Below, piece after piece: positions 10,859 to 62,598 of a stretch of 64,000 nucleotides of DNA (within the stretch, counting starts at the first letter, position 1; the number at the start of each line of letters is the position of its first letter). The position numbers were made by a program, and so were the translations under genes. The notes below the pieces were generated by a model. It worked only from the letters and a program-made list of their open reading frames with translations. It searched no databases and had not been told where the DNA came from. Origin of the DNA: Candidatus Dojkabacteria bacterium (GTDB lineage Bacteria > Patescibacteriota > Dojkabacteria > B142 > WJKM01); the NCBI GenBank assembly GCA_014729085.1, contig WJKM01000011.1, positions 170,852 through 234,851 of the forward strand, given 5' to 3'.

Positions 10859-10890
10859 CAAAAACTAACAAGCGGAATTTTGTGGGGGGG

Positions 10891-15104: not shown

Positions 15105-15127
15105 AACTATAATACTACACTGTTTAC

Positions 15128-15156: not shown

Positions 15157-15226
15157 TATATCTATTGACAAAATTATTTATATAGTAGTACAATATTATA
15201 GGCTTAAACTATTATAAAATCTATAA

Positions 15227-30564: not shown

Positions 30565-31671
30565 ATGAAACCCTTCATTAACTTTCTATCAATCCTTCTT
30601 TTCAGTTTAGTTTTGATATTAAGTGCAGGAGGCTTGATTGTAGTTGCCACAGCATCACTTCTCGCTCAAAGCGATAATAATTATATTTCAGCCAACTCTC
30701 AAGATGAATCATTACTTTTGTCTGATGATGATGAAGAAAATCTAGAAGTAATTCATAATACTTTTGAAGTTTACGACGTAAAAATTAATGAATATAAAGA
30801 GGCTGGTATGATGAAAATATACAACGCTTCAGACAGTCTGAGAGAAATATACATCCACTTTAGACCTAAATCACCAGAAGATAAGAAAACAGCTTCCAAT
30901 TTTATATTCCGTGTTTATCGAGGGGAGGCTACTTATCTTGATGAAAACAATTATAGAGTAACTAGAAATAATAACTTTTCAAAACCAATATATGAGGGTA
31001 CTTTGGACAAAATCGGAAATGATCTTTTCGACGTTATCGAAAAAGAAGGAGAGGTTGAATACATATTTGAAGTGACTCTGAAAGATAGTTTTAAAGAAAA
31101 TAAAAAAAACGATGTGAGTTTTTCTCTGGAAATTGAAGGGGTGACTATTGAAGATAAAGATAAAGAGAAAAAAGAACCTATCCTTGATATCTCTTCATCG
31201 AATTGGTCTGATCTTAATTCTTATCATAATGTAAGCGAAGAAAGGCTTCCAGTAGTTCAAACATTCAAACCTCATATAGAAGGACAACTGTCTTACATTG
31301 AGATTTGTACTGTAAGGAATGTATCAATCGAAATTTATGAAGGCGAGGCTCTTGAAGAAGAAATACAAAATTTAAAAATAAAATATATAAGTAAATCCAT
31401 AGAAACAGAAGACACCGGAGAAATCTGCAGTGATTACGAAAATTTTACAAAAAAGAAAATTTATTTTGACCAATCGACCATTTTAGACACCGAAGAAGAT
31501 CAAGAAGGAAATTTTACAAAAATATACACACTCAGGTTCGTACCGGAAAATGATATATATTCAATTGCATTCCCACCTAAATCGGAATATACCGAAGGAA
31601 GATTAAGCCTAAGTGATTCCTGGGAAAACGAACTTGACGTTGCATTTAATACATGGATGATAGAAAAGTAA
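30565..31671 (+). CDS. secreted protein with a SipW-cognate (TasA/camelysin-like) signal peptide
   Basis: Hydrophobic N-terminus ending ...ESLLLSDDDEENLEVIHNTFEV, comparable to the TasA-type AFFSD.E.....NTF signature; an acidic beta-rich body. Confidence 0.45.
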   Translation: MKPFINFLSILLFSLVLILSAGGLIVVATASLLAQSDNNYISANSQDESLLLSDDDEENLEVIHNTFEVYDVKINEYKEAGMMKIYNASDSLREIYIHFRPKSPEDKKTASNFIFRVYRGEATYLDENNYRVTRNNNFSKPIYEGTLDKIGNDLFDVIEKEGEVEYIFEVTLKDSFKENKKNDVSFSLEIEGVTIEDKDKEKKEPILDISSSNWSDLNSYHNVSEERLPVVQTFKPHIEGQLSYIEICTVRNVSIEIYEGEALEEEIQNLKIKYISKSIETEDTGEICSDYENFTKKKIYFDQSTILDTEEDQEGNFTKIYTLRFVPENDIYSIAFPPKSEYTEGRLSLSDSWENELDVAFNTWMIEK

Positions 31672-31722
31672 TATCAATATTTTAGTTATACTGTCCAAAT
31701 TTATTTTTTATTTTATATATAG

Positions 31723-41190: not shown

Positions 41191-42318
41191 TTATTCCAGC
41201 CTCATAGGCATTATGATATGAAGATAGTCCTTATCCTTCTTATCTTTAAACACCCCAGGAGAAGTGGCTCCTGTTGTTTCATAGATTATTTCTTCCCCTT
41301 CCATAGCAGTTATCATATCTTGCAAAAAACGTGCATTATATGCCGTTTCAAGGTCATCTCCTTCTACCTTTGCTATATCCACAAATGTCTCGTTCTTTCC
41401 AATGTCTACAACTAAAACTTTCATCAGAAGTTTTGCCTTTTCTGCATTTACTGCAAATTTTGTTTTGTTTCCCACAACATTACGTGCAAATATGCTTACT
41501 ACTTTAAGTGCTTCGGATAATTCTGCTTTTAATACCGAGAAACTGAAATCTTTCTTTTCGGGTAATATATCCTCAAAAGATGGAAACTCCCCTTCTATTA
41601 GCCTACTAACAAGCTCGATATCATCTATTTTAAAAACTACTTGATTATTATCCTTTAATTTATAAATTTCTACTTCGTCTTTTTCTCCAGCGACATCCTT
41701 GATTATTTTATTAATCTCCATTAAAGACTTTGCAGGAATAATCTCAAGAAAATCTTTTTCCGGGCCGTCTTTTATTTTCATAATTTTTCTCGAAAGTCTA
41801 TAACCATCAACTCCAACCATGGTTAATTTTCTCTTGGTAATTTTTGTTAGTAGACCGGTAAGGACAGGCCTTGAGTTATCTGTTGATGCAGAGAATGTTG
41901 TTTTATCAAGAGCTTTGGAAAATTCAAGTGCATTTATTTTCACTAAGGGCTTTCCTTTTGCTTCGGGAACAGAAGGGAAGTCATCTGCAGGAATTATAAA
42001 GAATTCTGCGCTATTATCCGTAGATTCAACGACTAATTTTTGTCCCTCTAAATAAATATTTAACTTACCTGGTTTAATTGTTCCAATGAATTCTGAAAGA
42101 AGTTTTGCCGAAACTGTAACTTTTCCTTTTTTCTGAATATTTGCCCCAATAGTAGCATTTATACCAATCTCTAAATTTGTACTTGAAAGTTTTATACTGT
42201 CTTTGTCTGCTTCAATATATACATTTGCAAGAACCGGGATATTTGGGGTTGTACTTATTGCTTTATTTATGTGAATTAATGCCTTAGCGAATTTTTTTTG
42301 GATAACTTCAATTTTCAT
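41191..42318 (-). CDS. dnaN: DNA polymerase III beta sliding clamp
   Basis: 375 aa with the three-domain clamp layout, beginning MKIEVIQKKFAKALIHINKAIS; immediately downstream of dnaA. Confidence 0.9.
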   Translation of the reverse strand: MKIEVIQKKFAKALIHINKAISTTPNIPVLANVYIEADKDSIKLSSTNLEIGINATIGANIQKKGKVTVSAKLLSEFIGTIKPGKLNIYLEGQKLVVESTDNSAEFFIIPADDFPSVPEAKGKPLVKINALEFSKALDKTTFSASTDNSRPVLTGLLTKITKRKLTMVGVDGYRLSRKIMKIKDGPEKDFLEIIPAKSLMEINKIIKDVAGEKDEVEIYKLKDNNQVVFKIDDIELVSRLIEGEFPSFEDILPEKKDFSFSVLKAELSEALKVVSIFARNVVGNKTKFAVNAEKAKLLMKVLVVDIGKNETFVDIAKVEGDDLETAYNARFLQDMITAMEGEEIIYETTGATSPGVFKDKKDKDYLHIIMPMRLE

Positions 42319-42482: not shown

Positions 42483-43859
42483 TTAAAAAATACTTTCTCT
42501 TAATACTTCAATTTGTTCCGCAAAGCCTTTGTCTACTTCTATTTTACTTTGAACTTTATCTACAGCATGCATTACAGTTGTATGGTCTTTGCGATTTAAA
42601 TTCTTTGCAACATCCTCTAATTTATAGCCTAAGTCTTTTCTTAAAATGTACATAACGACTTGTCTTGCGAAAGCAATATCAGCTTTCCTTGATCTACTGA
42701 GTATGTCTTTTGCAGTAACTTGAAATTCTTTTGATACATGTCTAATAATTTCACGAGGTTTTATTTTTTCTCTTTTACTTTTTTTATCTGTTCCAAGTAA
42801 ATTTGCTACTTCTCCCAAAGTCATTTTGTGAGAATTAATTTGATTGAAAAGGGCAATTTGTTGTAAATTTCCTTCTAGTTGCCTGACATTATTTGTCGAA
42901 TTTTTTGCAATATAACTAAGTATGTTTTTATCCAAATCTATTCCCAGCATTTTTGTCTTATATTCAACAATAGCAAGCCTTGTTTCAAAGTCGGGTTTTT
43001 CGATTTGTGCAACCATTCCTCCCTGGAAGCGTGATTTTAGTCTAGCTTCAAGGTTGTGGATTTTTTCTGGGGATCGATCTGAAACCAAGATTATCTGTTT
43101 GTTTTTGTTATAAAGAGCATTGAAAGTATTGAAAAGTTCATCCTGAGTTTGCTCCCATTTAGAAATTAATTGGATATCATCAATTATGAGAAGATCCAAA
43201 TATCTGTATTTATTTCTAAAATTTCTAGTCTTTCCTGTTTGAATTGCTTTCACCATCTCGTTCAAAAAATTCTCACTGGGTATATACAATATCTCCTTAC
43301 TTTGGTTTTTCTCTAATATTTTTTGTCCTATTGCTTGAGCTATATGAGTTTTTCCAAGACCTGTTTTGCCATATATGAATAAGGGGTTGTATATTTTTCC
43401 CGGATTTTCACATACAGCCAAAGCTGCGGCATGAACTAATCTGTTTGAGGGACCTGTTATGAAACTTTTAAAATTAAAAGCGCTTACTAAATTTGCATCT
43501 TTTAGAATTCGACTGAAGTCAGTATTTTCTCCTTTTTCTACACTGAACAGGGTTGATTGTCTTTCTTCTTTACTTATTTTAGGAATATCTTCGTTTGCAA
43601 GCTTCTTGGAGACAACATATGTGGGTTCAAGTTCTGTTCCTGCAACATGAGATATTGTTTCTTTAATTAAATTGTTATGTTTTTTTTGGAGCCAATCGGA
43701 AGCATAACTATTCTTAACTCCAATAACCGCTTTTTTTCCTTTTATTTCAATAAGTTCAGTTGGTTGAAACCAAGTTTTGTAGTGTGCAGGAGAATCAAGC
43801 TTTATTTCTATCTGGGCAAGTGTTGTTTTCCATACTTCTTGGGTCAAGATTTTCTTCAT
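42483..43859 (-). CDS. dnaA: chromosomal replication initiator DnaA
   Basis: AAA+ Walker A GKTGLGKTHIAQAIG, Walker B LLIIDDIQ, and a C-terminal DnaA-box binding HTH (IAFARQVVMYILRKDLGYKLEDVAKNLNRKDHTTVMHAVDKV). Confidence 0.92.
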   Translation of the reverse strand: MKKILTQEVWKTTLAQIEIKLDSPAHYKTWFQPTELIEIKGKKAVIGVKNSYASDWLQKKHNNLIKETISHVAGTELEPTYVVSKKLANEDIPKISKEERQSTLFSVEKGENTDFSRILKDANLVSAFNFKSFITGPSNRLVHAAALAVCENPGKIYNPLFIYGKTGLGKTHIAQAIGQKILEKNQSKEILYIPSENFLNEMVKAIQTGKTRNFRNKYRYLDLLIIDDIQLISKWEQTQDELFNTFNALYNKNKQIILVSDRSPEKIHNLEARLKSRFQGGMVAQIEKPDFETRLAIVEYKTKMLGIDLDKNILSYIAKNSTNNVRQLEGNLQQIALFNQINSHKMTLGEVANLLGTDKKSKREKIKPREIIRHVSKEFQVTAKDILSRSRKADIAFARQVVMYILRKDLGYKLEDVAKNLNRKDHTTVMHAVDKVQSKIEVDKGFAEQIEVLRESIF

Positions 43860-49727: not shown

Positions 49728-51563
49728 ATGAAAAATATTTTTGTGAATCCATTTTTAAAACTCATTATTTTCTTTTCGGTTTTTTTTGTTTTCAATTTAG
49801 TTGGTTTTAGTACTGTACATGCAGATGAGTTTTTACTAGCTTTTCCAATTGAAGACAGTTTTTGTGAAAGAGCAGACGAAGGAGGTTTAGGAGAAGGATA
49901 TTGGAAAAAGTTTATTTTGGAAGATGCTACTGGACAAAGATATGATTTTATACATAGAAATTATCCATACAACGCTTCAGAAGGAGAGAATTTAAATATC
50001 TACATAGATCCTTTAGAATGCAACTGGGAACAAGGTCTAACTTTTAAAGTACTCATAGACACAGCTAATCTCCCTTTAAATTTAACCTTGACCTTGGTAG
50101 GAGAAGACACAACAGGGAATGAATTTACTGTTTCGGATCAGAGCAATAATTATGAACTTACTTTTCTTAATGCAGGTAGTGATGATTATGATGTATGGTG
50201 GGGAGGTGGGACTACCGAGGAACCTCCTGATGACCCAATTGAATTTTATCAGTCAGGTACTGGTCCTGAGCCTGGCGAACAACCAACATCGAGGCCTGCA
50301 CCAACAGTAGTCGAGGGTAGATGTTCGGAGTTAGGAGAATCTGATCCAAAATACCTAGAGAATTACTTTACCTGTACAATGGTTAGAGGACGAAGTGGTC
50401 GGACTGTAAGTCCAGGTGTTTCTGAAACATATTGCAATACTAGTGATGGATATTATGAGGATCCGAAATGTTTGGGAGGGGATCTAGGTGAGGATACTGT
50501 ATGCGTTCCTTGTATAACAGGAGAGTCCGGATCTGGTGAATATCAAGCTGATTGTTCCGCTACAGGAACTTGTGGAGGTGGGCTTGAATGTCGAGACATA
50601 GGGGGAAACTTAATATGTGTACACAGGTTTAGAAGTCAGGGAGAAGGTGAGAGATGTACTGTTGGAGCTCAGGAATGTGCATATACAAGATATTCTCCCT
50701 ATACCTGTGAAGCTAGTGATATTGGTGGGGCAGTTGGGGCTTTGGGAACTTGCGTTACTCGTAGTAGGACTGATATAGGGGATGATGAAGAAGCTTCCGG
50801 TGCTATTGGATTTTATAAATCAGCAGAATTAGAGGAGGAACAGGTTTTTTTAGAAATAAGCAAAGGTTCTTCAATGTCTCGTTATGAGGTAACAACATGC
50901 GAAGAAATAAATGCATGTGCAAGAGGAGAGCTGGCTGAATATGCAGTTGATCCAGCCGAACCAGGTAAGTACAAGATAAGAGTTTTTCGTTCAGGTAGCA
51001 CCGATGCAGAAGATGAAGATGAAATTGAGATAGGAGAAGGGGAGCAAAGAATGATTATAGTTCATCTTGAAGATGGAAAACTATCTTTGTCTGATATAGA
51101 GGCAGGTTATTTAGGAATAAGTTTATCTAATGAAGGACTTGAGGGTTGTGCTATAAGTACAGGATATGACCTAACTTGTGCAAATTGTATTGCCAGAAAA
51201 GCTAATGGTGACCCCTTTACAAGTATAGAAGAGGTTGTTGCATCTTTCCAAACGGGGGATGCAGCTTATACAAATAATGTTTATACAGCACTGGGTTGTT
51301 GGGATACTACATATGAAGGAACTCTTACAAGAGTATTACAGATAGGGTTAGGGATTTCGGGAGCATTAATACTTGTTAGAATGGGGCAGGCCTTAACCAA
51401 GATAATGTCAGCTGATAATCCTGAAAAGAAAAAAGAAGGAATCGATATGATAGTTTCTGCATTTATGGCATTGTTGATGTTATTGTTTGGAGCGATAGGG
51501 CTAAGGTTTTTAGGAATAAATGTACTTAAAGTCTTACCTCCTGGTACAATAGAAATAGAATGA
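49728..51563 (+). CDS. large secreted Cys-rich protein with a C-terminal VirB2/TrbC-like two-helix membrane hairpin (array member 1)
   Basis: Signal peptide (…GFSTVHA-DE); ~450-aa ectodomain with more than 30 Cys (EGF-like spacing); C-terminal TM1 VLQIGLGISGALILV, loop SADNPEKKKEG, TM2 IDMIVSAFMALLMLLFGAIGL. The last ~150 aa are ~85% identical to member 2. Confidence 0.6.
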   Translation: MKNIFVNPFLKLIIFFSVFFVFNLVGFSTVHADEFLLAFPIEDSFCERADEGGLGEGYWKKFILEDATGQRYDFIHRNYPYNASEGENLNIYIDPLECNWEQGLTFKVLIDTANLPLNLTLTLVGEDTTGNEFTVSDQSNNYELTFLNAGSDDYDVWWGGGTTEEPPDDPIEFYQSGTGPEPGEQPTSRPAPTVVEGRCSELGESDPKYLENYFTCTMVRGRSGRTVSPGVSETYCNTSDGYYEDPKCLGGDLGEDTVCVPCITGESGSGEYQADCSATGTCGGGLECRDIGGNLICVHRFRSQGEGERCTVGAQECAYTRYSPYTCEASDIGGAVGALGTCVTRSRTDIGDDEEASGAIGFYKSAELEEEQVFLEISKGSSMSRYEVTTCEEINACARGELAEYAVDPAEPGKYKIRVFRSGSTDAEDEDEIEIGEGEQRMIIVHLEDGKLSLSDIEAGYLGISLSNEGLEGCAISTGYDLTCANCIARKANGDPFTSIEEVVASFQTGDAAYTNNVYTALGCWDTTYEGTLTRVLQIGLGISGALILVRMGQALTKIMSADNPEKKKEGIDMIVSAFMALLMLLFGAIGLRFLGINVLKVLPPGTIEIE

Positions 51564-51603
51564 ATGCAGGAGATATATTATTAACAAAAGCTTAAAAAAT
51601 ACT

Positions 51604-53205
51604 ATGAACGTTGTCTTGAAGTTATTTAAGAGAATACCATTTTTTCTATGTATTTTTATCTTAGTTTTCGTTCTAGATATAAAGTTTAATAGAACTTATG
51701 TTTATGCCACTGATGTGATTTATGTGAGGATCAATAATACTTGTCCAAGGGAACCGAATCAATTAAAAAGTATAGATAGTTTTGAGGTAGAAGGATCTGA
51801 TCTTGAACCAATAATGACTAGCGGAATACTCGGTGCATACTGTCCCTCAGCTCCTGATGGAGGGCAGTTTTTCCAATGGTTTAATGGTCCTGCCGAGATG
51901 GAATATACTTTTCATTTAACTGGGGAATTTGAAAGCGGAGAGGAAATAGATGACGAGATGGTAACTGCAACACCTGTTGCTTCATCAGATGGAATGGGGG
52001 GTACATGGCATTATGTAGAGCTTACATTTGATCCGCCAAGCTCTGCAACTTCGACACCACCTACTACGGGTACTACAACTCTTACTCCAACAACAAGTCC
52101 AGGCAATAACCCAGGAACTATTAATTTCATCTCGCCTGTTTCATCAGTAACAAATGCTGGAGCTATACCGCTTGAGGTAAGTTTAGAAGATATAAATTGT
52201 GACGATGACTATTCCTTTCGTGTTGACATAACGGATATTTCAGGGGCACGAACAACAAATATTTTTTTTCAGAACATTGATAACGACGAGATAGATGATG
52301 GAGAATATTCAATATCCCAATCATTTGACCTCTTGAGAGATCCTCCTTGGTGCATCTCAACTGATGCTTGCAGCAATCAAGAGTTCAGGTTAACAGCATA
52401 TGCTGATTGTGGAAGCGAGACTAACAGAGGACAAAGGAATTTTACGATATATAAGGAATCCGAGGAAATAACTGATGTATCTATTGAAATCGAAACGGTA
52501 GATCTAGGCGATACTTATGAAATTCAACTCGCTTTCAACAATGAAAGAAGGAATTTTACTGAAGAAAGCGGGACAGAAGTATTTGAGAATGTGGCTTTTG
52601 GAAATCATCCTTATACTGCACGTGCTGTTTATACTGATGGGGACGAGGAAGTAACCGAAAATTATGAAGGAGAGGTAGAGGTTACAGAGCATAATCAGAT
52701 CATCATTATCAGAATAAGAAAAGGAGGCTCACATGCTGTCGTAGCGCCAATGAAATATGTATCAATTTCCAACGAGGGACTCGAAGGATGCGCAGTAAGT
52801 ACAGGGTACGACTTAACTTGTGCAAATTGCATTGCCAGAAAAGCAAATGGTGACCCCTTTACCAGTGTAGAAGAAGTTGTAACATCATTTGAATCTCAGG
52901 ATGCAATTTATACCAATAATGTATATACTGCATTTGGATGTTGGGATCCCACTTATTCCGGCACTATAACCAGAATACTACAAATAGGGCTAGGAATTTC
53001 GGGGGCAATGATACTTCTTAGAATAGGCCAAGCTCTAACAAAGATAATGTCGGCTGATAACCCTGAGAAAAAGAAAGAAGGAGTAGATATGATTGTTTCC
53101 GCATTCATGGCTTTGATTATGTTACTTTGTGGGGCTATTGGTTTACGTTTCTTGGGCATAAATGTACTTAAAGTTTTACCTCCTGGTACAATAGAAGTGG
53201 AGTAG
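51604..53205 (+). CDS. large secreted Cys-rich protein with a C-terminal VirB2/TrbC-like hairpin (array member 2)
   Basis: Signal peptide; Thr/Pro-rich stretch (TSTPPTTGTTTLTPTTSPGNNPG); unrelated N-terminal head; C-terminal module ISNEGLEGCAVSTGYDLTCANCIARKANGDPFTSVEEVV...LKVLPPGTIEVE shared with member 1. Confidence 0.6.
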   Translation: MNVVLKLFKRIPFFLCIFILVFVLDIKFNRTYVYATDVIYVRINNTCPREPNQLKSIDSFEVEGSDLEPIMTSGILGAYCPSAPDGGQFFQWFNGPAEMEYTFHLTGEFESGEEIDDEMVTATPVASSDGMGGTWHYVELTFDPPSSATSTPPTTGTTTLTPTTSPGNNPGTINFISPVSSVTNAGAIPLEVSLEDINCDDDYSFRVDITDISGARTTNIFFQNIDNDEIDDGEYSISQSFDLLRDPPWCISTDACSNQEFRLTAYADCGSETNRGQRNFTIYKESEEITDVSIEIETVDLGDTYEIQLAFNNERRNFTEESGTEVFENVAFGNHPYTARAVYTDGDEEVTENYEGEVEVTEHNQIIIIRIRKGGSHAVVAPMKYVSISNEGLEGCAVSTGYDLTCANCIARKANGDPFTSVEEVVTSFESQDAIYTNNVYTAFGCWDPTYSGTITRILQIGLGISGAMILLRIGQALTKIMSADNPEKKKEGVDMIVSAFMALIMLLCGAIGLRFLGINVLKVLPPGTIEVE

Positions 53206-53247
53206 TTAAATTAATCTTTGAAGTCTAACTTTTAATTCAAGAAAATT

Positions 53248-53595
53248 ATGAATATAAAAAAATTGATTTATTCATTATTTTTATTATCCATGATTGTCGG
53301 TTTTAGATACAGAGTAATGGCTGTTACTATACCAAATCCTTTTGCCGGCGATTTCCTTGATAATTTTACAAGGATTACGAGTGTAATTAGACCCGCAACC
53401 GTGCTGAGCTTCTTAGGAGTTGTTTTGTGGGGAGGCTTTACTATAGAAACAGCTGGCGACAATGCAGATAAGATGTCTAAGGGATGGAAAATTATATTAG
53501 CTGGAATTATTGGTTTTGTAGTAATGATTATAGCACCTTCTCTTCCTGATTTTATAGCTATGATTTTTGGGACGGAAGGATTGATTGATTTTTGA
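53248..53595 (+). CDS. VirB2/TrbC-like pilin-like small protein (array member 3)
   Basis: 115 aa; cleavable signal peptide (MNIKKLIYSLFLLSMIVGFRYRVMA), TM1 ATVLSFLGVVLWGGFTI, loop ETAGDNADKMSKGWK, TM2 IILAGIIGFVVMIIAPSL. The size and topology are those of a T4SS pilin subunit. Confidence 0.55.
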   Translation: MNIKKLIYSLFLLSMIVGFRYRVMAVTIPNPFAGDFLDNFTRITSVIRPATVLSFLGVVLWGGFTIETAGDNADKMSKGWKIILAGIIGFVVMIIAPSLPDFIAMIFGTEGLIDF

Positions 53596-53614
53596 TTATT
53601 AAATATTCCAAATA

Positions 53615-54577
53615 TTGGATATAAGTATAATGATGACAAAGAATCCACAAGGGCTATTTATTAAGTTCACAAAATATTTTTTCATATTAACCTGTGCTTT
53701 TTCGGTATTTTCTATTAAAGTTAAAGCTCAGGAGGCTCCATTAATTGACTGGCGTTGCAGCAGGGAACAGTTATTTAGAAGTGATTCAGACAGAAATCAG
53801 CTAATAAAGAGGCAGGAAGAGGAAGGAGAAACCTGTGGTGATTCTTTGTCTGATGTATGCGAAAAAGGTTTTGAAGGATATGAAGAAGAAGACCCCTGTT
53901 GGGAACATTTGAAGTATTGTTATGCAAATAGTTGTTGTGTGGAAAATAATACTCAAGCGCAGTTAGTTTGTTTGGAACTGAATTATCCCGCTGGAAATGA
54001 AGCTACCAGTAGTCTTGGGGAGGGAGGAGTAAATTTTTTTAGAACTGACTTTATTCTTAATAAGAAAACTCTGCCCATAATTATAAGGATGGTATTAACA
54101 GTAATTTTTGCTGCATGGGTGATATATAAATTCTGGGATGCTATTAAAGGATTTGATTATTGGCTTCAAGCGGCTAACTCGGGAGAAGATGCAGAAAAGG
54201 CAAAGAATCATTTTACTCATGCAATGCTGGGTTCGGCAATTGGTGTTGCAGGAGTTTTACTTACTACTCTAATTTTTAAATTAGGTGGATATGACGAACC
54301 GTTTAATTTTGATCCGGATATAGATAGACTTTTAGATGTTGACTGTGTTGGGATTAGAGACAGTGCTGTTGAATGTGAACATTATGACTTAAGTTGTGAT
54401 TTATCTATTACCAGTTCACATAGAACGGCTGAAGAATGTGACCAATCGGAGAGGGAAGAACCAGGAACTTGCGAATTTACATGTACTAGCAAAGAGGAGG
54501 TAGAGACAGTCGAGAGTGCAGTAACATGCTGGGGAATAACAGGAATGGGAGGCCCTCTAGAAAGAAATTGTGATTAG
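53615..54577 (+). CDS. secreted Cys-rich protein with an internal pilin-like TM hairpin (array member 4)
   Basis: Signal peptide; Cys-rich N-terminal domain; TM1 IIIRMVLTVIFAAWVIY, loop ANSGEDAEKAKNHF, TM2 LGSAIGVAGVLLTTLIF; Cys-rich C-terminal domain. Confidence 0.55.
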   Translation: MDISIMMTKNPQGLFIKFTKYFFILTCAFSVFSIKVKAQEAPLIDWRCSREQLFRSDSDRNQLIKRQEEEGETCGDSLSDVCEKGFEGYEEEDPCWEHLKYCYANSCCVENNTQAQLVCLELNYPAGNEATSSLGEGGVNFFRTDFILNKKTLPIIIRMVLTVIFAAWVIYKFWDAIKGFDYWLQAANSGEDAEKAKNHFTHAMLGSAIGVAGVLLTTLIFKLGGYDEPFNFDPDIDRLLDVDCVGIRDSAVECEHYDLSCDLSITSSHRTAEECDQSEREEPGTCEFTCTSKEEVETVESAVTCWGITGMGGPLERNCD

Positions 54578-54600
54578 GGTATTTTTTATTTAATAGTTTT

Positions 54601-55359
54601 ATGAATCTAAAAAAGCTAATTAGAAAATTTGGATACTATTCATTTTTCCTTGTTTTTATTTTTTCTCTTATATTTACAAATGTATTGGCCCAGGATGATG
54701 GAGTTTCTATTTCTACTGGAGATGATGACTCGAGAAAAATATTTCTTCATATTTTCCCGCCTTCAACAATAGCTGATTTAAGGAAGTATGGAATATTGAG
54801 ATTCGCCGGTTATTTGGGGGTTATTATTGTGGCGGTTCTTCTTCTCGAAACAATTTTTGTCATTATTAAGACAGCAATGGAATTCTCAACAGACGAAGCA
54901 AAAGAGATAGAAGATGCATTCAAATCTACGCAAAACCTATGGCAAGGAGTAGGATGGGCATTAGGTTCTTTCATAGCATATGCAGGGATATCCATTTTTT
55001 TAGGGACAGGCAATATGTTTAATTGGGCATCAAAGCTTTATCAATGCAACACTGAAATTCTATTTAGAGCTGAATACAGAGCAGCGGTTATTAATCCAGA
55101 TTTATTCAAGGACGAAGTAATGATATATTGTTGCAGTAATCTTGAACGTGTAAATATCCCCGAAGATGAGAGAGGTGAAGGCAGACTTAGCATTTCAAGT
55201 TGGCATTCTTATACATATTCCAGGGATTTGGAAGCAGTCGGTGTGGGAACTAAAGAAGACGGGGGATGGCTCTTTATAGCTGACCCTGAAGGAACAGGTC
55301 CTAATGTTATCCCTTCAGATGTAAAGAGTTCACAGGGATGTGAAGAGTTTACTGTTTGA
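54601..55359 (+). CDS. secreted protein with a pilin-like TM hairpin (array member 5)
   Basis: Signal peptide; TM1 FAGYLGVIIVAVLLLETIFVII, loop KTAMEFSTDEAKEIEDAFKSTQ, TM2 GVGWALGSFIAYAGISIFL; C-terminal Cys-containing domain. Confidence 0.55.
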   Translation: MNLKKLIRKFGYYSFFLVFIFSLIFTNVLAQDDGVSISTGDDDSRKIFLHIFPPSTIADLRKYGILRFAGYLGVIIVAVLLLETIFVIIKTAMEFSTDEAKEIEDAFKSTQNLWQGVGWALGSFIAYAGISIFLGTGNMFNWASKLYQCNTEILFRAEYRAAVINPDLFKDEVMIYCCSNLERVNIPEDERGEGRLSISSWHSYTYSRDLEAVGVGTKEDGGWLFIADPEGTGPNVIPSDVKSSQGCEEFTV

Positions 55360-55426
55360 ACTAATATGAATATTGAGCTATTATGAACTTAGCGATAATT
55401 TATTTAAAATTTAAAATTTTCTGCCT

Positions 55427-56041
55427 ATGAAAAAAAGATCGATATTTTACACTTCTATGTTGTCGCTTTTTTTGTTTGCGATGACTTTGCAAGAGACATA
55501 TGCACAATGGTTACCGCCATTTCTACAGGATATGCTTGAGGGCAATGTGATTTTTAAAGCACAGAACAGAATAAAAGTTTTTTTTGTTCTTATGATTGGA
55601 GCTTTCCTCATTTTGGTTGTATTCATGATTATTAAAGGTTTAATGGACTTTTCAAGAGATGAAGCTCAAGAGATAAGTGACGCAGGAAAAGTCATGCAGA
55701 AGCAATTTGTTGCTGTGGGAGGTGTATTTGTTGCTGTCCTTGGATTAGCAGTTGTGTTAGTGTTTTTTGGTTCAACAATTATTCAACCTGAACCTGTTTG
55801 TATTGAATTTCCTGACAGTTATGGTTGCTGGGTTTGTCAAAATAAAGGGAAGGTCAATTTTGATTCTAGTGCTGGAGTATCGGCTGAAGATGCCTGTGCA
55901 GAATGTAATAGTCATCCCGATGATGGGCTGATTCCACCGAATGATATAGAGTGCAGAAGATCTATAGGGGCAGATGCACCAGATAAGGAAGGAGAATCTC
56001 TAACAGATGCAGAGATAGAAGAAGATTTGGGAATAACCTAA
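55427..56041 (+). CDS. secreted protein with a pilin-like TM hairpin (array member 6)
   Basis: Signal peptide; TM1 VFFVLMIGAFLILVVFMII, loop KGLMDFSRDEAQEISDAGKVMQ (paralogous to member 5), TM2 FVAVGGVFVAVLGLAVVLVFF; Cys-rich C-terminus (CIEFPDSYGCWVCQNKG...CAECNSHPDDG). Confidence 0.55.
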   Translation: MKKRSIFYTSMLSLFLFAMTLQETYAQWLPPFLQDMLEGNVIFKAQNRIKVFFVLMIGAFLILVVFMIIKGLMDFSRDEAQEISDAGKVMQKQFVAVGGVFVAVLGLAVVLVFFGSTIIQPEPVCIEFPDSYGCWVCQNKGKVNFDSSAGVSAEDACAECNSHPDDGLIPPNDIECRRSIGADAPDKEGESLTDAEIEEDLGIT

Positions 56042-56243
56042 GAATAAATATAAATTTAATTAAAAAATTGCAGGGGATTATACCTCTCCTAGATCAGAAT
56101 ATCCGATTGTCTCTCCCTCCGGTCAGTTAATCGTACTTTTGATTTAGACTCGGCACAAGGGATCGTGCAATTTTTGACCGCAAATTGATAACATGATTAT
56201 TGCACAAATTCGTTTTCGATTAGTATATTAATTTTTTAAGTTA

Positions 56244-57293
56244 ATGAGAATCAAAAATTTTAAATATACTTTAAGGTATGTTGTATATGTACCTTTAGTT
56301 TCACTTCTCTTTTTTACAAACATTGTTTCACCAGTTTTTTCCCAATCTCAGGAAGATGTCAATCCTCTCTATGATGCCAGTAAGGAAGATCAGGTATTTG
56401 CAAATTACAACTATGATTGTTCAAATTTGGCTTGGCCGTCTAATGTAAAAGGTGTGTACAGAAAATTTTTGGATGGACCTCTTGATAGAAAATGGGCTTA
56501 TACCTTTTATATTTTCAAAAGTGATGAGAATATACTTGACTTAGAAAAACAGCATATAGATCATAAGGGGACAGCAAATGATCCATTTAGAACAGAAGAT
56601 AACGATAGACTTCTTTTAGGTCCTATGTATGTTTCAGATGAGGATGCAGAAACTTATGGTATTTTAGAAGAGTATGAAGGAAAAATTATTTGCTGGGCTG
56701 GATATTCAGGGGTTAAATGTAGTTCACCAAATGCATGGTATAAGGTATGTGCAGGTGAAGGTGTGGTCGATGCTTATCTATGTGATCCTAATGATAATAC
56801 GTTAGACCGAATAACTATAGAAACAGATGATTCTGGTCAGTGCGGACCAAGCGATATAGGTAAAGTTATAGAAAATACAGCAGGCGTAAGTGATTTAGCT
56901 GTAACTAATCCAAACATTGCTATGGCGAACTTCATACCGCCAGCGTTGCAGCAGTTGGAAAATTATTTTTTGGACTTTGTTTATCTAATTTGGGCTTTTG
57001 TTGGAACTTTTGCAGCGTTTCAGCTACTATATATTGGTTTCCAAATTATGGTTTCTGGCTTTAGTCCGGAACGTCTGGGTAAAGAATATTCCAAACTCGC
57101 ATATTGGGTAGTTGGCTTAATCGGCTTTTTTCTTGCAATTCCTGCACTACATTTCGTATATAATTCTTTAGATATTCGTCATACGAAATGTTTTTATTAC
57201 AGTGACGAAGAAAAAGGTTATGATTTAACTTTACCTGGATTTACTTTTTTCTTCAAAGATGTATGTACTGGAGAATATTCAATAGAAGAGTAA
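56244..57293 (+). CDS. secreted Cys-containing protein with a C-terminal pilin-like TM hairpin (array member 7)
   Basis: Signal peptide; ~220-aa ectodomain with Cys pairs; TM1 FVYLIWAFVGTFAAFQLLYIGF, loop SGFSPERLGKEYSK, TM2 LAYWVVGLIGFFLAIPALHFV. Confidence 0.5.
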   Translation: MRIKNFKYTLRYVVYVPLVSLLFFTNIVSPVFSQSQEDVNPLYDASKEDQVFANYNYDCSNLAWPSNVKGVYRKFLDGPLDRKWAYTFYIFKSDENILDLEKQHIDHKGTANDPFRTEDNDRLLLGPMYVSDEDAETYGILEEYEGKIICWAGYSGVKCSSPNAWYKVCAGEGVVDAYLCDPNDNTLDRITIETDDSGQCGPSDIGKVIENTAGVSDLAVTNPNIAMANFIPPALQQLENYFLDFVYLIWAFVGTFAAFQLLYIGFQIMVSGFSPERLGKEYSKLAYWVVGLIGFFLAIPALHFVYNSLDIRHTKCFYYSDEEKGYDLTLPGFTFFFKDVCTGEYSIEE

Positions 57294-57449: not shown

Positions 57450-58595
57450 ATGTTAAAAATTTTGCATACAGCCGATGTTCACTTAGGAGCTAAGTTATCG
57501 TGGCTTGGCAACAAAGCAGTTATTCAACAGAAGCAACTCCTTTCAACATTTTCCGAGATTATCGATTTAGCTATTGAGAAGAAGATCGATATATTATTAA
57601 TTTCCGGCGATCTTTTCGATATTTCGTACCCAAATGGAACTCTTGTATCAGCGGTTCAAGGCCAAATCAGGAGATTAAGTGATGAGAGAATTTATACAAT
57701 TATTATTCCTGGAAACCACGATAGATTAGAACCTGAGTCTATCTGGACAAAAAGGTTTACAGATAGTGATTATTGTTTTGTAATTAACAGTAAGGGAGCT
57801 AAAGTAATTAATTTGAAAGAATTGGGAGTTAAAATATTTGGACAAGGAACATATGATCAGTTTTCTGATGAGTCTCCTCTTAAACCTTTGATTGAAAAGA
57901 AAAAAAGTACGGAAAATAATAATTATTCTATAGCTATGGTACATGGTTCGGTTGGTATTCACGCACAGATTTCAAAGAATTACCCAATTAGCAAAGATGA
58001 GATTGAGGAATCAGAATTTGATTATATTGCTTTAGGAGATTGGCATGGAAATTTAGATGTTTCTCAAGGGGATACGAAAGCTTGGTATCCAGGATCTCCG
58101 GAGATAATCGCCAAGGATCAAAAAAAATCGGGATTTGTGATTTATGTTGAAATAGGAGAGGAGGTAAAGGTCGAGTCCTTACGGGTCGGTCAGAAGAAAA
58201 TACGGGAAAAGGAAATTAATCTAAACAAAATATCGCATAATGAAGAATCAACTAAGAAGTATATTGAGAAAAAAATAATGCAGGAATTGTCTGAAGAAGC
58301 GGATGAAGATACAATCGCTCTAGTAAAAATAATAGGAAAAAAGAAAATCGATTGGCAGATAGACGCTGATGACTTAGAATATCTACTTAAAGATAAATAT
58401 TTCTATCTGAAAGTTGAGGATGAAACACAATTAGAAGTGGAGGATAAGGAATTATCCAAATATCCTGAGGAGATGGTGATTGGGAGGTATATCAGGGATG
58501 TACGGAGTGCAATTCAAAAAGAGGATAATACTGCTAAAAAAGAACTTTTAAAAGATATTTTACAGGAAGGTGTAAATAGGTTGATCACAAAATAA
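57450..58595 (+). CDS. SbcD/Mre11-like nuclease (YhaO/SbcF-type calcineurin-like phosphoesterase)
   Basis: Motifs ADVHLG, LISGDLFD, IIPGNHD, MVHGS and ALGDWH; 381 aa. Confidence 0.75.
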   Translation: MLKILHTADVHLGAKLSWLGNKAVIQQKQLLSTFSEIIDLAIEKKIDILLISGDLFDISYPNGTLVSAVQGQIRRLSDERIYTIIIPGNHDRLEPESIWTKRFTDSDYCFVINSKGAKVINLKELGVKIFGQGTYDQFSDESPLKPLIEKKKSTENNNYSIAMVHGSVGIHAQISKNYPISKDEIEESEFDYIALGDWHGNLDVSQGDTKAWYPGSPEIIAKDQKKSGFVIYVEIGEEVKVESLRVGQKKIREKEINLNKISHNEESTKKYIEKKIMQELSEEADEDTIALVKIIGKKKIDWQIDADDLEYLLKDKYFYLKVEDETQLEVEDKELSKYPEEMVIGRYIRDVRSAIQKEDNTAKKELLKDILQEGVNRLITK

Positions 58596-58670: not shown

Positions 58671-60776
58671 ATGATAATAAAAACATTCTCAATAAAAAAT
58701 TTTAAAAAATTTAGAAATGAAACCTTTGAATTTTCCGAAGGTCTGAATATTATTCTTGGACCGAACGAAGCTGGTAAATCTTCACTTGCAGAAGCTTTGA
58801 TCACCTGTCTATTTACCGATCCTACAACAAGATCAAAGAAATTTTTTAATAATTCGAGACCTTGGGGTAAAAGAAAAGAAGACAAACCTATCTTTGAGCT
58901 GGAGTTTATTGAAGGAGAGGGGGAATATATATTAAGAAAGAATTTTTCCGAAAGGGAAGTACTTTTAAAAGAGATACATAAGAATAAAAGTATCACTGGT
59001 AAAACAAAAGTTGCGAATTTCATCGAAAAATCTCTTGGATTTCCTTCTGAAGATATTTACAGATCAACTGGGTTTATAGGACAAAAGGATATACTTAAAG
59101 TACAAAAGTCTGACGATTTTATTACAGCTGTCCAAAATGCCTCTTCAGGAGAGGGAAGGGATGGCGATATTCAGTATGTAATAAGTGAGATTGATAAAGA
59201 AATAAGACAACTTCAAAAAGGACTCAAAAGCCCCTCTAAATCTCCAGGTCCAATCAAGCAAACTAAAGATGCATTGGAAAAAAAGAGGTTTGAACTCTCT
59301 GAATTGGATGAAAAGTGGAAGCAGATTAAAAAGAAAATAACAAATCTGGAAAAGAAGAGACATAAGAGAAAAAAATTAAAAAATAAGATTGAGGTATTAG
59401 AAAAAGTATTGAAAAACCACGAAAAATATAAAACAGCAAGGATTAATTTAGAAGAAACAATAAAAAAAATTAAAGTACTGTCGAAAGACATAAAGAATAT
59501 TGAAGAACTAGATAAGGAAATTGACCAGATGAACTTCAAATTGAAAAAATATGAAAAACTAGAAGGTGTAGATCTAGATGACTTATTATTAAATTTTGCG
59601 AATATTCATAATGATATAAGACTTCGTAAAGAAACAATCAAACAGATAGAGCAAAACATGGAACGAATCGGAAAAGAAGGAACGCATAAATACAGAAAGC
59701 CAATTCTGGGTATCACAATGAGTGTTTTTTTAATCCTTATGGGAGTTTCAATATATCGAAAAAGTGTCTTTCTGTTTATTGTTGATTGTGCAATAGCAAC
59801 AGCAGTTATATTATTTGATTTTTTCGTGATTAATAAAAAAGCACGAAAAAGAAAAACACTAAAACAAAAACAGGAGGACTTAAATGAAATTGCCGAAAGA
59901 GACGAAAAGAAACTTGAATCGATTATGTCAGAATATAATATTTCTACAAAAGAACAGTTTTTATCAATCAAATCGGAAATTAATTCCTTAAACCTAGAAA
60001 TCGAAAAGGCGAAAGCAAATAAGCTTGGAATTCTTGGAGGGAAAACCCTGGAGAGATTAAAAGACGAACAGATTGATTTACTGACTATGAAAAAAGATAT
60101 TGAAATCAATGATTTAACCAACGAGATACTTAACTCTCAACTTGATCCCGAAGAATACAATAGAAAAAAAATAGATTTAGAAAGATTTACTAAAGAATTT
60201 AAAGAAGTACATGAAGAAATTTTGAACCTAGAAGGCAAACTTAATGAAAGTGGTACTTCTTTGGATAACTTACGTAATTTGAAAGCAGAAATAGAAGAGT
60301 TGGAAAAAAACTTAAAATATTATAATTACAGACTAAAGGTACTTATTGGAGTAGAAAAATATTTACAAAAAGCTTTGGAAGATACTTCAAGTCTTGCAAT
60401 CAACATTTTACGCAAAGATATCGAACAATACTTCCCAAAACTAACTAAGCAGAATTATAATAAAGTCAGGATAGATAAGAAATTTAATCTAGAGATTTAT
60501 TCAAATAAATTGGACGATTGGTTAGATCCGGTTGATAACCTTTCTATTGGAACAATAGATCAGATTTATTTCTTATTTAGGTTAGCTTTTGTAAAATTAT
60601 TAGTAAAAAATAAAAAAACAATATTGATCCTTGACGATCCATTTGCAAGTTATGATGAAGACAGATTGGAGAACGTTTTTAATATACTTGATAAAGAACA
60701 GCAGCAGTTTCAGATTTTATTGTTAACTCACGAGACAAGGTATAAAAAATATGGAAAAGTAACTCAAATATATTAG
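58671..60776 (+). CDS. SbcC/Rad50-like SMC-family ATPase with a membrane-spanning insert (YhaN/SbcE-type)
   Basis: Walker A GPNEAGKSS; a long coiled coil interrupted by two TM helices (ILGITMSVFLILMGVSIY, FLFIVDCAIATAVILFDFFVI); C-terminal signature-like LSIGTIDQ, Walker B ILILDDPFASYDEDR, H-loop LLLTHE. Confidence 0.7.
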   Translation: MIIKTFSIKNFKKFRNETFEFSEGLNIILGPNEAGKSSLAEALITCLFTDPTTRSKKFFNNSRPWGKRKEDKPIFELEFIEGEGEYILRKNFSEREVLLKEIHKNKSITGKTKVANFIEKSLGFPSEDIYRSTGFIGQKDILKVQKSDDFITAVQNASSGEGRDGDIQYVISEIDKEIRQLQKGLKSPSKSPGPIKQTKDALEKKRFELSELDEKWKQIKKKITNLEKKRHKRKKLKNKIEVLEKVLKNHEKYKTARINLEETIKKIKVLSKDIKNIEELDKEIDQMNFKLKKYEKLEGVDLDDLLLNFANIHNDIRLRKETIKQIEQNMERIGKEGTHKYRKPILGITMSVFLILMGVSIYRKSVFLFIVDCAIATAVILFDFFVINKKARKRKTLKQKQEDLNEIAERDEKKLESIMSEYNISTKEQFLSIKSEINSLNLEIEKAKANKLGILGGKTLERLKDEQIDLLTMKKDIEINDLTNEILNSQLDPEEYNRKKIDLERFTKEFKEVHEEILNLEGKLNESGTSLDNLRNLKAEIEELEKNLKYYNYRLKVLIGVEKYLQKALEDTSSLAINILRKDIEQYFPKLTKQNYNKVRIDKKFNLEIYSNKLDDWLDPVDNLSIGTIDQIYFLFRLAFVKLLVKNKKTILILDDPFASYDEDRLENVFNILDKEQQQFQILLLTHETRYKKYGKVTQIY

Positions 60777-60843: not shown

Positions 60844-62598
60844 ATGATACAGATAAAGAAAAACAAAAACAAAAACAAAAAGTTTATAAGTTTAATGCTT
60901 GTATTGATTTTGTTATCTTTCTCAATATTTTCCCCCGTTGTGTTTTCCAGGACTGTCTCAGAAATTCAAGAGGAAATTGATAATAGAAAGGAAGAACTAA
61001 CAAACGTCGATTCTGAAATACAGAAGTTGGAAGAAGATTTAGAATCCCAAAAACAAAAGCTTGCCGAGGTTACTGATAGAAGAGTGAAACTGCGTGGAGA
61101 AATAGAATTAAACAAAAAAGAAGCAGAAATTATTAAAAGAAAAATGCAGGATTTAGAAGAAAAACAGAAACTTAAAGATCTTGAAAAAGAGAAAAGAATG
61201 ACTAAACAGAATAAGATGGTTCAAGGCTTTTATACAGACTGGAAACAGACAAATATAGTTCGAAGCATTCTAAGTTCTGGTGCTACCAATATGATGAAAG
61301 TTGCTGTCTATCAAAATGCAGTTACATTGGATGAACAAGAAAATATCCAATTAATAGAGCAGGAATTATTAGAAATTCAAAAGGAATATGAAAAAGCGGA
61401 GGTTCAGCGCCACGATTATGAGACTAGACTAAATACCTTGGCCAATCAAGCACAGGAAATAGAAAGACTACTTAAAGAACTGGAAGAGAAAATTGCCTCA
61501 AATACGAATGATATAAGTAACTATCGGGCAAAAATTGCTGTTCTGCAGTCCGAGATAGAACAGTTAACAGCCGAGCAAAAAGCAATTCAAGAATATGAAA
61601 ACTCCCTTCTTGCCAAAGATGCTTCAAACGGAGGAACACAGGAGTTGGAAACAGGGGATTTGTATTTTCAGGGGGTAGGGAGGGAAATATATCAAGGCCA
61701 TGGAGTCGGAATGTCACAGTTTGGAGCATTGGGTGCTGCACTGAAAGGCTGGGATTACAAGAAAATACTGGAGTTCTATTATCCAGGTGCAAAGGTTGTG
61801 AAATATACTGAAGTGCAAACACTAAATGTAGATGGATATGGATCTATGTCAATAGAAAATTATGTGGCAGGAGCTGGGGAAATACCTGATTATTCTTGTG
61901 AAGATCTTGAGATTGAATTTGATCACAATAACATTTGGAAATGTTGGCCTAAAGAGGCAATTAAAGCACAGGTTGTAGCATTTAGAACCTACGGTTTGAA
62001 TAAGACAAAAGGAGGATCCAGTATTTGTACAACTGCTAGATGTCAAGTTTACAAAGGTGGAGAGAATAAAAGGTGGGCAGCGGAGGAAACAGAGAGTATG
62101 GTTGTAGTTTATGGGGGAGAACCAATAAGCGCTTTTTATAGCTCTGATAATCATAATGGATGGGGGACTGCAAACAATGACACAGTATGGAGTAATTTCG
62201 AGGGTGAAGGTGTACCAGAGCCTTATTTGAGAGCTGTAAATGATAAAGCCATAGCGTATAAATATACTTATACGGAATGGACCTGGAGAACAAACGGCTA
62301 TTCGATAGAAGATATCGACGGAATGTTGAATTGGAGCATGAGCTCTAACCAAGCATCTGATAAATATAGAACATTCATTACAGATCTCAAAAGTTCTATT
62401 GGGGAATTGAAGGGGCTCGAGTTTGAACGCGATCCATCTGGTAGAGTAAATAAAGTTAAATTAATCGGATCAAGCAAATCAAGATATATGGCCGGATGGC
62501 TATTCAAATCTTTGTGGAATATTTGGATAGGAAATGAAAAACCTTCTGGTGAAGAAGATTATATTTATAGTTTGACTTACTATATGAAGGTTAAATAA
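60844..62598 (+). CDS. exported coiled-coil protein with a C-terminal SpoIID/LytB-like cell-wall hydrolase domain
   Basis: Signal peptide; ~270 aa of heptad-rich coiled coil; SpoIID signature GHGVGMSQFGALGAA plus downstream conserved Cys/aromatic residues. Confidence 0.6.
   Translation: MIQIKKNKNKNKKFISLMLVLILLSFSIFSPVVFSRTVSEIQEEIDNRKEELTNVDSEIQKLEEDLESQKQKLAEVTDRRVKLRGEIELNKKEAEIIKRKMQDLEEKQKLKDLEKEKRMTKQNKMVQGFYTDWKQTNIVRSILSSGATNMMKVAVYQNAVTLDEQENIQLIEQELLEIQKEYEKAEVQRHDYETRLNTLANQAQEIERLLKELEEKIASNTNDISNYRAKIAVLQSEIEQLTAEQKAIQEYENSLLAKDASNGGTQELETGDLYFQGVGREIYQGHGVGMSQFGALGAALKGWDYKKILEFYYPGAKVVKYTEVQTLNVDGYGSMSIENYVAGAGEIPDYSCEDLEIEFDHNNIWKCWPKEAIKAQVVAFRTYGLNKTKGGSSICTTARCQVYKGGENKRWAAEETESMVVVYGGEPISAFYSSDNHNGWGTANNDTVWSNFEGEGVPEPYLRAVNDKAIAYKYTYTEWTWRTNGYSIEDIDGMLNWSMSSNQASDKYRTFITDLKSSIGELKGLEFERDPSGRVNKVKLIGSSKSRYMAGWLFKSLWNIWIGNEKPSGEEDYIYSLTYYMKVK

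Follow-up and report, generated by a model that had tools for sequence, protein, structure and literature searches.

The question raised by this locus is whether seven consecutive open reading frames (ORFs) encode pilins and, if they do, how these pilins relate to known secretion and surface systems. The ORFs lie co-directionally on the plus strand at positions 49728-57293 of a 64,000-nucleotide stretch (hereafter, the window) of a 301,743-bp contig of the ultra-small Candidatus Dojkabacteria bacterium (WJKM01000011.1), where the first three products are recorded at NCBI as hypothetical proteins. A sequence-only reading had proposed that all seven carry a hairpin of two membrane helices resembling the VirB2/TrbC pilins of type IV secretion systems (T4SS). 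Our analysis supported this core idea, as the third product exceeded the gathering score of the T4SS pilin family PF18895 and the others were linked to that family by profile-profile comparison with controls. On balance, we consider it probable that these genes form a cassette of VirB2-like pilins (PF18895) of the Patescibacteria type, located on the chromosome near the replication origin; its heads are proposed to be carried on a T4SS pilus.

The seven products (m1 to m7) are 611, 533, 115, 320, 252, 204, and 349 amino acids long, and the intergenic gaps across the array are 19-202 bp. A promoter and terminator scan of the array performed no better than on shuffled sequence. Kyte-Doolittle scans showed that each product begins with a hydrophobic segment ending at an AXA-like site (VHA/D, VYA/T, VMA/V, VKA/Q, VLA/Q, TYA/Q, and VFS/Q). 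In all seven, this segment is followed by two hydrophobic helices approximately 40 residues apart with a short D/E/K-rich loop between them. By hydropathy and AXA-like sites, therefore, the architecture of PF18895 (cleavable signal peptide, two transmembrane helices, short charged loop) was observed in seven of seven members. The signal-peptide ORFs, the paired helices, and every loop sequence quoted in the sequence-only reading were thereby recovered. When the 49 long ORFs of the window were subjected to the same hydropathy test, none of the other 42 genes displayed the layout, indicating that the run of seven is not due to chance.

The members differ mainly in what is attached to the hairpin. 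m1 (49728..51563; NCBI GF362_04415) consists of a signal peptide (residues 1-32), a variable Cys-rich head with 22 Cys residues, a conserved 4-Cys stalk (residues ~467-527), and a C-terminal hairpin (residues 528-600; DNA 51309-51527). m2 (51604..53205; GF362_04420) closely resembles m1 in its stalk and hairpin (nearly identical; residues 450-522, DNA 52951-53169) but carries a different head. These two proteins showed 71% identity over the C-terminal 195 amino acids (E 1e-87); by region, the hairpin was 88% identical and the remainder 35%. m3 (53248..53595; GF362_04425) is the 115-amino-acid member, contains no Cys, and is the only one lacking an ectodomain. The hairpin of m4 (53615..54577; 17 Cys) lies in the middle of the protein (residues 150-228; DNA 54062-54298) with Cys-rich segments on either side. 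In m5 (54601..55359; four invariant Cys), the signal peptide is followed by a short N-terminal segment, the hairpin (residues 66-140; DNA 54796-55020), and a conserved C-terminal ectodomain. m6 (55427..56041; six conserved Cys) has a signal peptide, a hairpin at residues 46-120 (DNA 55562-55786), and a CxxC-rich C-terminal ectodomain. Finally, m7 (56244..57293; eight Cys) has a large N-terminal ectodomain followed by a hairpin at residues 240-310 (DNA 56961-57173); its C-terminus is a short conserved tail that contains Cys. Across the hairpin, m5 and m6 were 41% identical (E 3e-10), and no member pair other than m1/m2 and m5/m6 showed significant pairwise similarity. The ectodomains of the six members range from ~85 to 500 amino acids and are mostly Cys-rich. 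The claim that all seven proteins are Cys-rich held for m1, m2, m4, m6, and m7 (2.3-5.3% Cys, against a background of ~0.7%), but not for m3 or for m5 (4 Cys, 1.6%).

To compare families rather than single proteins, we used this genome together with four relatives: L001, a 213-kb JGI contig, and the Dojkabacteria-like loci L003, L004, and L005. Orthologues of m1, m4, and m7 are denoted r1, r4, and r7. The array comprises six orthologous families, with m1 and m2 in F1 and m3 to m7 in F3 to F7, respectively. Against PF18895, whose gathering score is 26.6 bits, m3 reached 28.9 bits (E 1.2e-6), and the precomputed database annotation agreed. Below this score, PF18895 was the top match, lying exactly on the hairpin, for m1, m2, m7, r1, and r7; the values were 15.6 bits for the m1 hairpin alone, 14.8 for m2 (residues 454-509), 15.8 for m7 (residues 242-298), and 17.2 for r7. 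m4, m5, and m6 gave no PF18895 match in the Pfam scan. The best NCBIfam match of m1, m2, and m7, also obtained for m3, was NF045849 (Mbov_0395), at 14-17 bits against a cutoff of 40.

More sensitive profiles extended this link. An exhaustive HMMER search at E<=1e-3 with m3 and its 58%-identical relative P0002 returned 795 representative relatives, which were mostly pilins of 100-135 amino acids. A lineage-tuned hidden Markov model (HMM) built from 104 of these scored 30.7 bits for r4, 24.9 for m7, 19.5 for r7, 15.7 for r1, and 11.8 for m4. As a control for composition, each group HMM was scored on the 104 real pilins and on their reversed sequences with a cut at >5 bits. The G1, G4, and G7 HMMs separated the two sets, with 77-82 of 104 real pilins above the cut and only 1-5 reversed ones (for G4, 78 versus 2). 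Furthermore, the F1 profile matched a PF18895-annotated metagenomic protein, P0005 (E 1.5e-6). When homologues were sought through a word index, using m3, the alignment of the seven hairpins, or that of F1 as the query, nearly all matches were to the array itself, apart from P0002 and P0005. The lineage is rare in databases. A profile of all seven hairpins (A1) was too blurred to be of use, giving the 58%-identical relative only 37 bits.

The five-genome family alignments were then compared by hhalign with the deep 104-sequence pilin profile, using reversed sequences as controls. The probabilities were 99.9% for F3 (reversed, 2.4%), 95.4% for F4 (P 1.8e-8; reversed, 1.5%), 94.6% for F7 (P 7e-8; reversed, 4.3%), 88.5% for F6 (P 2.8e-6, 69 columns in register; reversed, 3.2%), 84.5% for F1 (reversed, 12.9%), and 74.6% for F5 (P 2.7e-5; reversed, 15.5%). 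Between families, F5 and F6 aligned at 97.4% and F4 and F6 at 72.8%; an earlier two-genome comparison between groups, mostly non-significant, was superseded by these alignments. Profile evidence thus argues strongly that m3, m4, and m7 belong to the PF18895 family, and there is good evidence for placing m1 and m2 there. m6 is probably a member, and m5 can be assigned with moderate confidence, mainly through its relation to m6.

The position of m5 and m6 required separate consideration, as F5 and F6 might be two-helix accessory proteins rather than pilins, for example, VirB3/PrgI-like proteins or an assembly-platform subunit, in which case the array would comprise five pilin genes and two accessory genes. 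No F5 or F6 orthologue gave a PF18895 signal, the four-sequence G56 profile scored real and reversed pilins alike (18 versus 16 above 5 bits), and the first hhalign comparison, made before the five-genome alignments, gave only 7.6%. The distinct and conserved C-terminal ectodomains of the two families would also suit such a role. However, the five-genome alignments set F6 at 88.5% over 69 columns against 3.2% for its reversed control, and they also joined F5 to the pilins and F4 to F6. Moreover, m5 and m6 carry cleavable signal peptides and extracellular Cys domains, and no VirB3 or PrgI model was matched in Pfam or NCBIfam. To our knowledge, VirB3 and PrgI proteins have neither such signal peptides nor such Cys domains. 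We therefore regard an accessory role for m5 and m6 as improbable.

It is far less probable still that the hairpins belong to an unrelated family of two-helix proteins, such as holins, bacteriocin immunity proteins, or transporter fragments, or to another type of pilus (type IV, sortase-assembled, or Pam). Short two-helix segments do attract weak, non-specific Pfam matches (WLS-like_TM, DUF4006, and EMC6), but these were far below thresholds and inconsistent between orthologues, whereas the PF18895 link survived the reversed-sequence controls. An unrelated, well-known family, which the sequence-only reading had named as the result that would overturn it, was thus not encountered. The class III prepilin motif (G/FxxxE; GF(T/S)LxE), whose absence had already been noted, was found in none of the seven N-termini, all of which are ordinary Sec-type signal peptides. 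The LPXTG motif of sortase-assembled pilins was likewise found in 0 of 7 members. As far as the available description goes (bioRxiv 10.64898/2026.03.03.709456), Pam pilins of the Candidate Phyla Radiation (CPR) have an immunoglobulin-like fold, assemble by donor-strand exchange, and contain no transmembrane hairpins; on that description, they form a different system whose architecture is incompatible with the array proteins. These alternatives, from holins and transporter fragments to the type IV, sortase, and Pam pili, were accordingly rejected on motif, architecture, and profile evidence.

The relation to solved pilins was addressed by structure prediction. An AlphaFold2 model of m3, based on a 30-sequence alignment, had a predicted local distance difference test (pLDDT) score of 86.8, with helices at residues 36-68 and 73-107 above 90. 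The helical hairpin of this model superposes on solved conjugation pilins; the conjugation pilin 8dfu gave the best TM-score and the lowest root-mean-square deviation of the Foldseek matches, although none of these was significant. A conjugation pilin as the nearest structure is in keeping with the sequence-only reading, and m3 is, as modelled, a bona fide short pilin with the conjugative-pilin fold. The m6 model, built from only two aligned sequences, reached a pLDDT of 51, too low for a fold search.

Next, we examined conservation. The L001 locus, located through P0002, has the order dnaN-dnaA-yidD-lexA-HTH_25-dnaJ-IF2-rlmH, then six array genes, SbcD, and SbcC; between IF-2 and rlmH, an MNT/HepT toxin-antitoxin pair is inserted (L001:6614-7239). 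Its six array genes are one-to-one orthologues of m1/m2, m3, m4, m5, m6, and m7. A scan of genome collections revealed the identical ordered cassette in L003, L004, and L005, with flanks confirmed by blastp. The cassette F1-F3-F4-F5-F6-F7 and its position (rlmH-array-SbcD-SbcC) therefore keep their order in all four relatives, and six orthologous families in fixed order are intact in at least five genomes. Pseudogenes in close relatives, a finding that would have counted against the original proposal, were not seen. The F1 gene is single in each of the four relatives, and m1 and m2 are, as judged from their sequences, a lineage-specific duplication of it. Scans anchored on m6 gave no match in genome or metagenome contigs. 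A tblastn search of m3 against plasmid and phage collections was likewise without a match, so nothing ties the array to a known mobile element. L003 (CAYSKC010000012.1) is labelled Saccharibacteria yet has the dojkabacterial cassette and synteny, and its label looks wrong.

Between genomes, the array proteins are 25-50% identical. The flanking dnaN, dnaA, yidD, dnaJ, IF-2, and SpoIID products show about 55-66% identity and those of rlmH, lexA, the HTH_25 gene, SbcD, and SbcC 29-49%. Within the array proteins, conservation in F1, F6, and F7 is far higher in the hairpin than in the head. In F1, the hairpin is 52% identical across genomes, and the head is 23% identical with 45% gaps, at lengths from 431 to 705 amino acids. 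The comparison of array conservation with head turnover that the sequence-only reading had proposed thus showed an ordered cassette in four relatives and a hypervariable F1 head. F5 showed the opposite pattern, its ectodomain being 40% and its hairpin 28% identical. Conserved Cys columns numbered four in F5, six in F6, four in F7, and five in F4 (Cys in at least 4 of 5 sequences), and Cys counts were even in most members, with F4 and m2 as exceptions. Conserved columns and even counts fit disulfide-bonded extracellular domains.

The array occupies chromosomal DNA near the replication origin. The window is low in GC (~33%) and contains dnaG, ftsK, dnaN, dnaA, lexA, dnaJ, IF-2, and rlmH; its sole FtsK-like gene encodes a true FtsK with alpha and gamma domains. 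dnaN lies at 41191-42318 and dnaA at 42483..43859 on the minus strand (Pfam Bac_DnaA, DnaA_N, and Bac_DnaA_C), the latter serving here only as a marker of the origin region. The array start, at 49728, is 5.9 kb from dnaA, and the layout is identical in L001 and L005. This placement agrees with the literature on Patescibacteria, in which T4SS genes tend to lie near dnaA and dnaN, as reported for virB4 loci (PMC12102498).

Hairpins fused to large domains are not confined to this lineage. In L002, two long PF18895 proteins lie in tandem, and the one of 278 amino acids scores 32 bits at its C-terminus. Among the best 150 of the 795 representatives, 11 were long, Cys-rich proteins with a single hairpin. 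About 36 of the same 150 were "poly-pilins," in which one signal peptide precedes 2-8 tandem hairpins in a single chain, such as P0022 (820 amino acids, eight units) and P0006 (606 amino acids, seven units), as well as P0015 and P0034. Giant ORFs that start with a T4SS_pilin hairpin were found in contigs of Uhrbacteria and two other Patescibacteria (L007:10135-18359, L008:9842-16600, and L009:11944-20144). Their products are 2,252, >2,733, and >2,741 amino acids long, the latter two being cut by the end of the locus, and contain 97-132 Cys. Each giant ORF is preceded by a paralogue of 720-900 amino acids with the same hairpin. A six-gene CPR-type pilin array, one member of which has 551 amino acids and 34 Cys, was also observed in L006 (CAYPKD010000003.1), whose label "uncultured Gammaproteobacteria" looks wrong given that array.

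Contrary to the sequence-only reading, which recognised nothing comparable among characterised systems, pilin arrays are already known in Patescibacteria. Using PF04956, PF18895, and CONJScan profiles, Quinonero-Coronel et al. (2025; PMC12102498) screened 3,035 genomes of Patescibacteria and found VirB2-like pilins in 1,948 VirB4-positive assemblies, with a pilin near virB4 in only 1,135. An array was defined there as at least two pilin genes in tandem or one non-pilin gene apart (i-Evalue <0.001, >50% profile coverage), which gave 441 arrays of 2-11 pilins with a mean identity of 25%, in 383 Patescibacteria assemblies. The T4SS genes frequently lay close to dnaA and dnaN, and virB4 loci are so placed in most Patescibacteria classes. 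Table S1 names the class Dojkabacteria five times, and the two assemblies of this class in its accessible part both carry a VirB4-positive mark. In Southlakia epibionticum ML1, a series of six pilins in the T4SS cluster is essential (Wang et al. 2023; PMC10633639), and a 2025 FEMS review regards a monoderm pilus as an intriguing possibility (PMC12857230).

Like the arrays of that survey and of Southlakia, the present one comprises tandem, divergent PF18895/VirB2-like paralogues of low mutual identity (~25% in the survey), on a CPR chromosome, close to dnaA and dnaN, with no relaxase nearby. Unlike them, it has no virB4 beside it within the 64-kb window, six of its seven members bear ectodomains, and it consists of six ordered orthologous families rather than interchangeable duplicates. 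It also differs in that one of seven members passes the survey's Pfam criteria. Under the two Pfam models of the survey, only m3 qualifies, so a census with those models would count one pilin here, whereas the more sensitive profiles used in the present study give five to seven members. The survey detected no adhesins and does not speak of pilin fusions in its text, and a literature search for Patescibacteria with cysteine-rich pilins found nothing. Adhesin-like fusions and a fixed gene order were thus not found in the searchable literature. What is new here is a hidden, ordered pilin cassette fused to ectodomains, of which standard thresholds would register just one pilin.

Other systems share parts of this organization. 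Classical conjugative pilins are small, at approximately 7-12 kDa when mature. Like VirB2, TrbC, and TraA (PF04956) and the archaeal Ced/Ted pilins (8dfu, 8dft), the array proteins combine a signal peptide with two hydrophobic helices and a short charged loop; unlike them, they give no significant sequence match, belong to a monoderm host, and in six cases carry extra extracellular domains. The T4SSs of Anaplasma and Bartonella also have VirB2 paralogue arrays (cited in PMC12102498), in which tandem amplification and diversification are thought to vary the surface in contact with the host. Those pilins are small and belong to diderm pathogens of eukaryotic cells, whereas diversity here lies mainly in the heads and the families are conserved orthologues. 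The Mbov_0395 family (NF045849) of pilin-like conjugal transfer proteins from Mycoplasma integrative and conjugative elements, whose match lies on the hairpin in every case, likewise comes from wall-less or monoderm systems of mating-pair-formation class FATA (MPF-FATA), but at 14-17 bits against a cutoff of 40 the proteins are not members. Type IV pili and type II secretion systems have minor or tip pilins with large inserted domains, such as GspK, and in classical T4SSs, the adhesin VirB5 at the tip is a separate, non-pilin protein. The likeness to GspK and VirB5 is one of function and not of homology, namely, an abundant small shaft subunit with a few low-copy binding subunits. The fold and machinery differ, and in the present array head and pilin hairpin are parts of one protein.

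On the reading of the array as a pilin cassette, a mechanism may be outlined as follows. Each precursor would enter the membrane by way of Sec and lose its signal peptide to signal peptidase I, leaving a membrane hairpin whose two termini lie outside and whose charged loop faces the cytoplasm. A monoderm, VirB4-type (MPF-FATA-like) T4SS encoded elsewhere in the genome would then extract and polymerise the hairpins. The Cys-free, 115-amino-acid m3, the candidate major pilin, would form the shaft. The ectodomain-bearing paralogues may be built into the tip or the shaft at low stoichiometry or may stay at the base, and their disulfide-stabilised heads would attach to the surface of the host cell. 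Specificity may be determined by the F1 head, which is variable and duplicated. In the solved conjugative pili (F and pED208), both pilin termini point outward, so that heads at either the N- or the C-terminus are topologically compatible with display on a pilus.

Several points weigh against this scheme. Only one of the seven members, m3, passed the PF18895 gathering score, the link of m5 and m6 to the pilins consists of hhalign probabilities of 75-88%, and their four-sequence profile did not tell real pilins from reversed ones. As the sequence-only reading had stated, no VirB4, VirB6, VirD4, or relaxase was found when window ORFs of at least 100 amino acids were scanned against Pfam and a subset also against NCBIfam; VirB3 was likewise not found in the 64-kb window. 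A Southlakia-type locus, with the VirB4 ATPase and VirB3/VirB6/VirB8-like genes together, was therefore not found among the ORFs scanned there, and since these included no VirB4, pilus assembly is what we infer and not what we observed. No VirB4-family match was found either in scanned ORFs within 10 kb of the pilin loci of L006 and L009, the L009 scan covering upstream ORFs, as the giant ORF takes up the 10 kb downstream. Direct membership in TrbC/VirB2 (PF04956), which had been put forward for checking, failed: no window protein matched this family at E<=1, and the sole match was that of the orthologue r7 (12.5 bits, E 0.18). Searches of PDB sequences with profiles A3 and A5 found no solved pilin, and Foldseek with the m3 model gave no significant PDB match. 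Because the PDB sequence and PF04956 searches were unmatched, the link to classical VirB2 lies in fold and architecture. Incorporation into a filament is a conjecture, since a head of 300-500 residues per subunit fits poorly with tight helical packing. Finally, we know of no organism in which a pilus of PF18895 proteins has been visualised.

These points lend some weight to a second explanation, in which only m3, if any member, is filamentous and the other six display their heads on the envelope as surface adhesins, with the hairpin as a membrane anchor and no polymerisation by a T4SS. Heads of up to ~500 residues here, and of >2,000 in L007 to L009, would clash in a VirB2-type helical lattice, T4SS genes were not found near the array or the L006 and L009 loci, and the greater conservation of the F5 ectodomain over its hairpin suits a head-borne function. 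However, a passive anchor would not need the conservation seen in F1, F6, and F7, whose hairpins far exceed their heads in this respect; the hairpins also keep family-specific motifs beyond plain hydrophobicity, and the genes always stand in fixed order beside a canonical short pilin. We consider this explanation unlikely, though it deserves serious attention. The sequence-only reading had itself raised a new family of hairpin-anchored adhesins; as a family, this idea failed because the hairpins belong to a known one, whereas as a possible function it survives for the ectodomain members.

If the pilin-cassette reading is extended to the fusions in other lineages, a broader proposal may be made, which we advance only tentatively. 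The VirB2-type hairpin of CPR bacteria might be a general plug-in module that loads disulfide-rich adhesin heads, of ~85 to >2,700 amino acids, onto a T4SS pilus or at its tip. The dojkabacterial structure would then be a composite filament of one shaft pilin and five conserved head-bearing minor pilins, with the hypervariable F1 head setting host range. If so, no earlier conjugative-type pilus would be known to have pilin fusions as its adhesins, and the arrangement would explain the lack of a PrgB-like adhesin in Patescibacteria T4SSs.

Patescibacteria, which live on the surface of host cells, account for much of bacterial diversity, and in their sole tractable model the T4SS and its pilin array are essential. 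The present results suggest that published censuses based on standard HMM thresholds under-count pilin arrays, and many "hypothetical" Cys-rich surface proteins may be pilin fusions. The variable, duplicated F1 head is a concrete candidate for a host-recognition molecule, and the ordered set of six families suggests a division of labour between a shaft pilin and minor or tip subunits.

Downstream of the array, three genes identified by family matches follow on the plus strand. The first (57450-58595) encodes an Mre11/SbcD-like nuclease and the second (58671-60776) a Rad50/SbcC-like ATPase; the third (60844-62598) encodes a peptidoglycan hydrolase with a SpoIID/LytB domain, a signal anchor, and a long coiled coil. 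The first two had been described as a membrane-anchored pair. The ATPase does have two transmembrane helices, which form a hairpin in the middle of the protein (residues ~344-390), where the coiled-coil apex is expected, but the nuclease has none. A similar mid-protein hydrophobic stretch was seen by eye in the L001 orthologue of the ATPase (L001:15321-17423). SbcD and SbcC follow the cassette in L001, L003, and L005, and L004 ends inside the array. The SpoIID gene is downstream in L003 (9326-11071) and L005 (17423-19168), with 54-57% identity between genomes, but not in L001, where a secreted protein of 935 amino acids with 30 Cys stands at its position (L001:17553-20360); with this genome included, it is present in three of the four genomes in which the contig reaches this point. 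Because flanking housekeeping genes are equally syntenic, adjacency alone shows no functional link to SbcCD or SpoIID. The hydrolase could be a wall-remodelling partner of the array and, as a speculation, could supply a VirB1-like wall-opening activity.

Other secreted proteins are encoded farther from the array. Two signal-peptide ORFs at 30565-33363 (368 and 546 amino acids) and three consecutive ones at 2218-5624, upstream of ftsK (388, 334, and 343 amino acids), matched no Pfam or NCBIfam family. A sortase gene lies at 12571-13203, 37 kb from the array, and is surrounded by three secreted bacterial TSP3-repeat proteins (8314-9168, 9539-10858, and 15227-15853) and a DUF4349 protein; the region 8314-15853 may be a separate surface-protein locus. 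Near the origin, adjoining dnaN, a gene on the minus strand (39347-41146) encodes a secreted right-handed beta-helix/NosD-like protein of 599 amino acids with 3.0% Cys.

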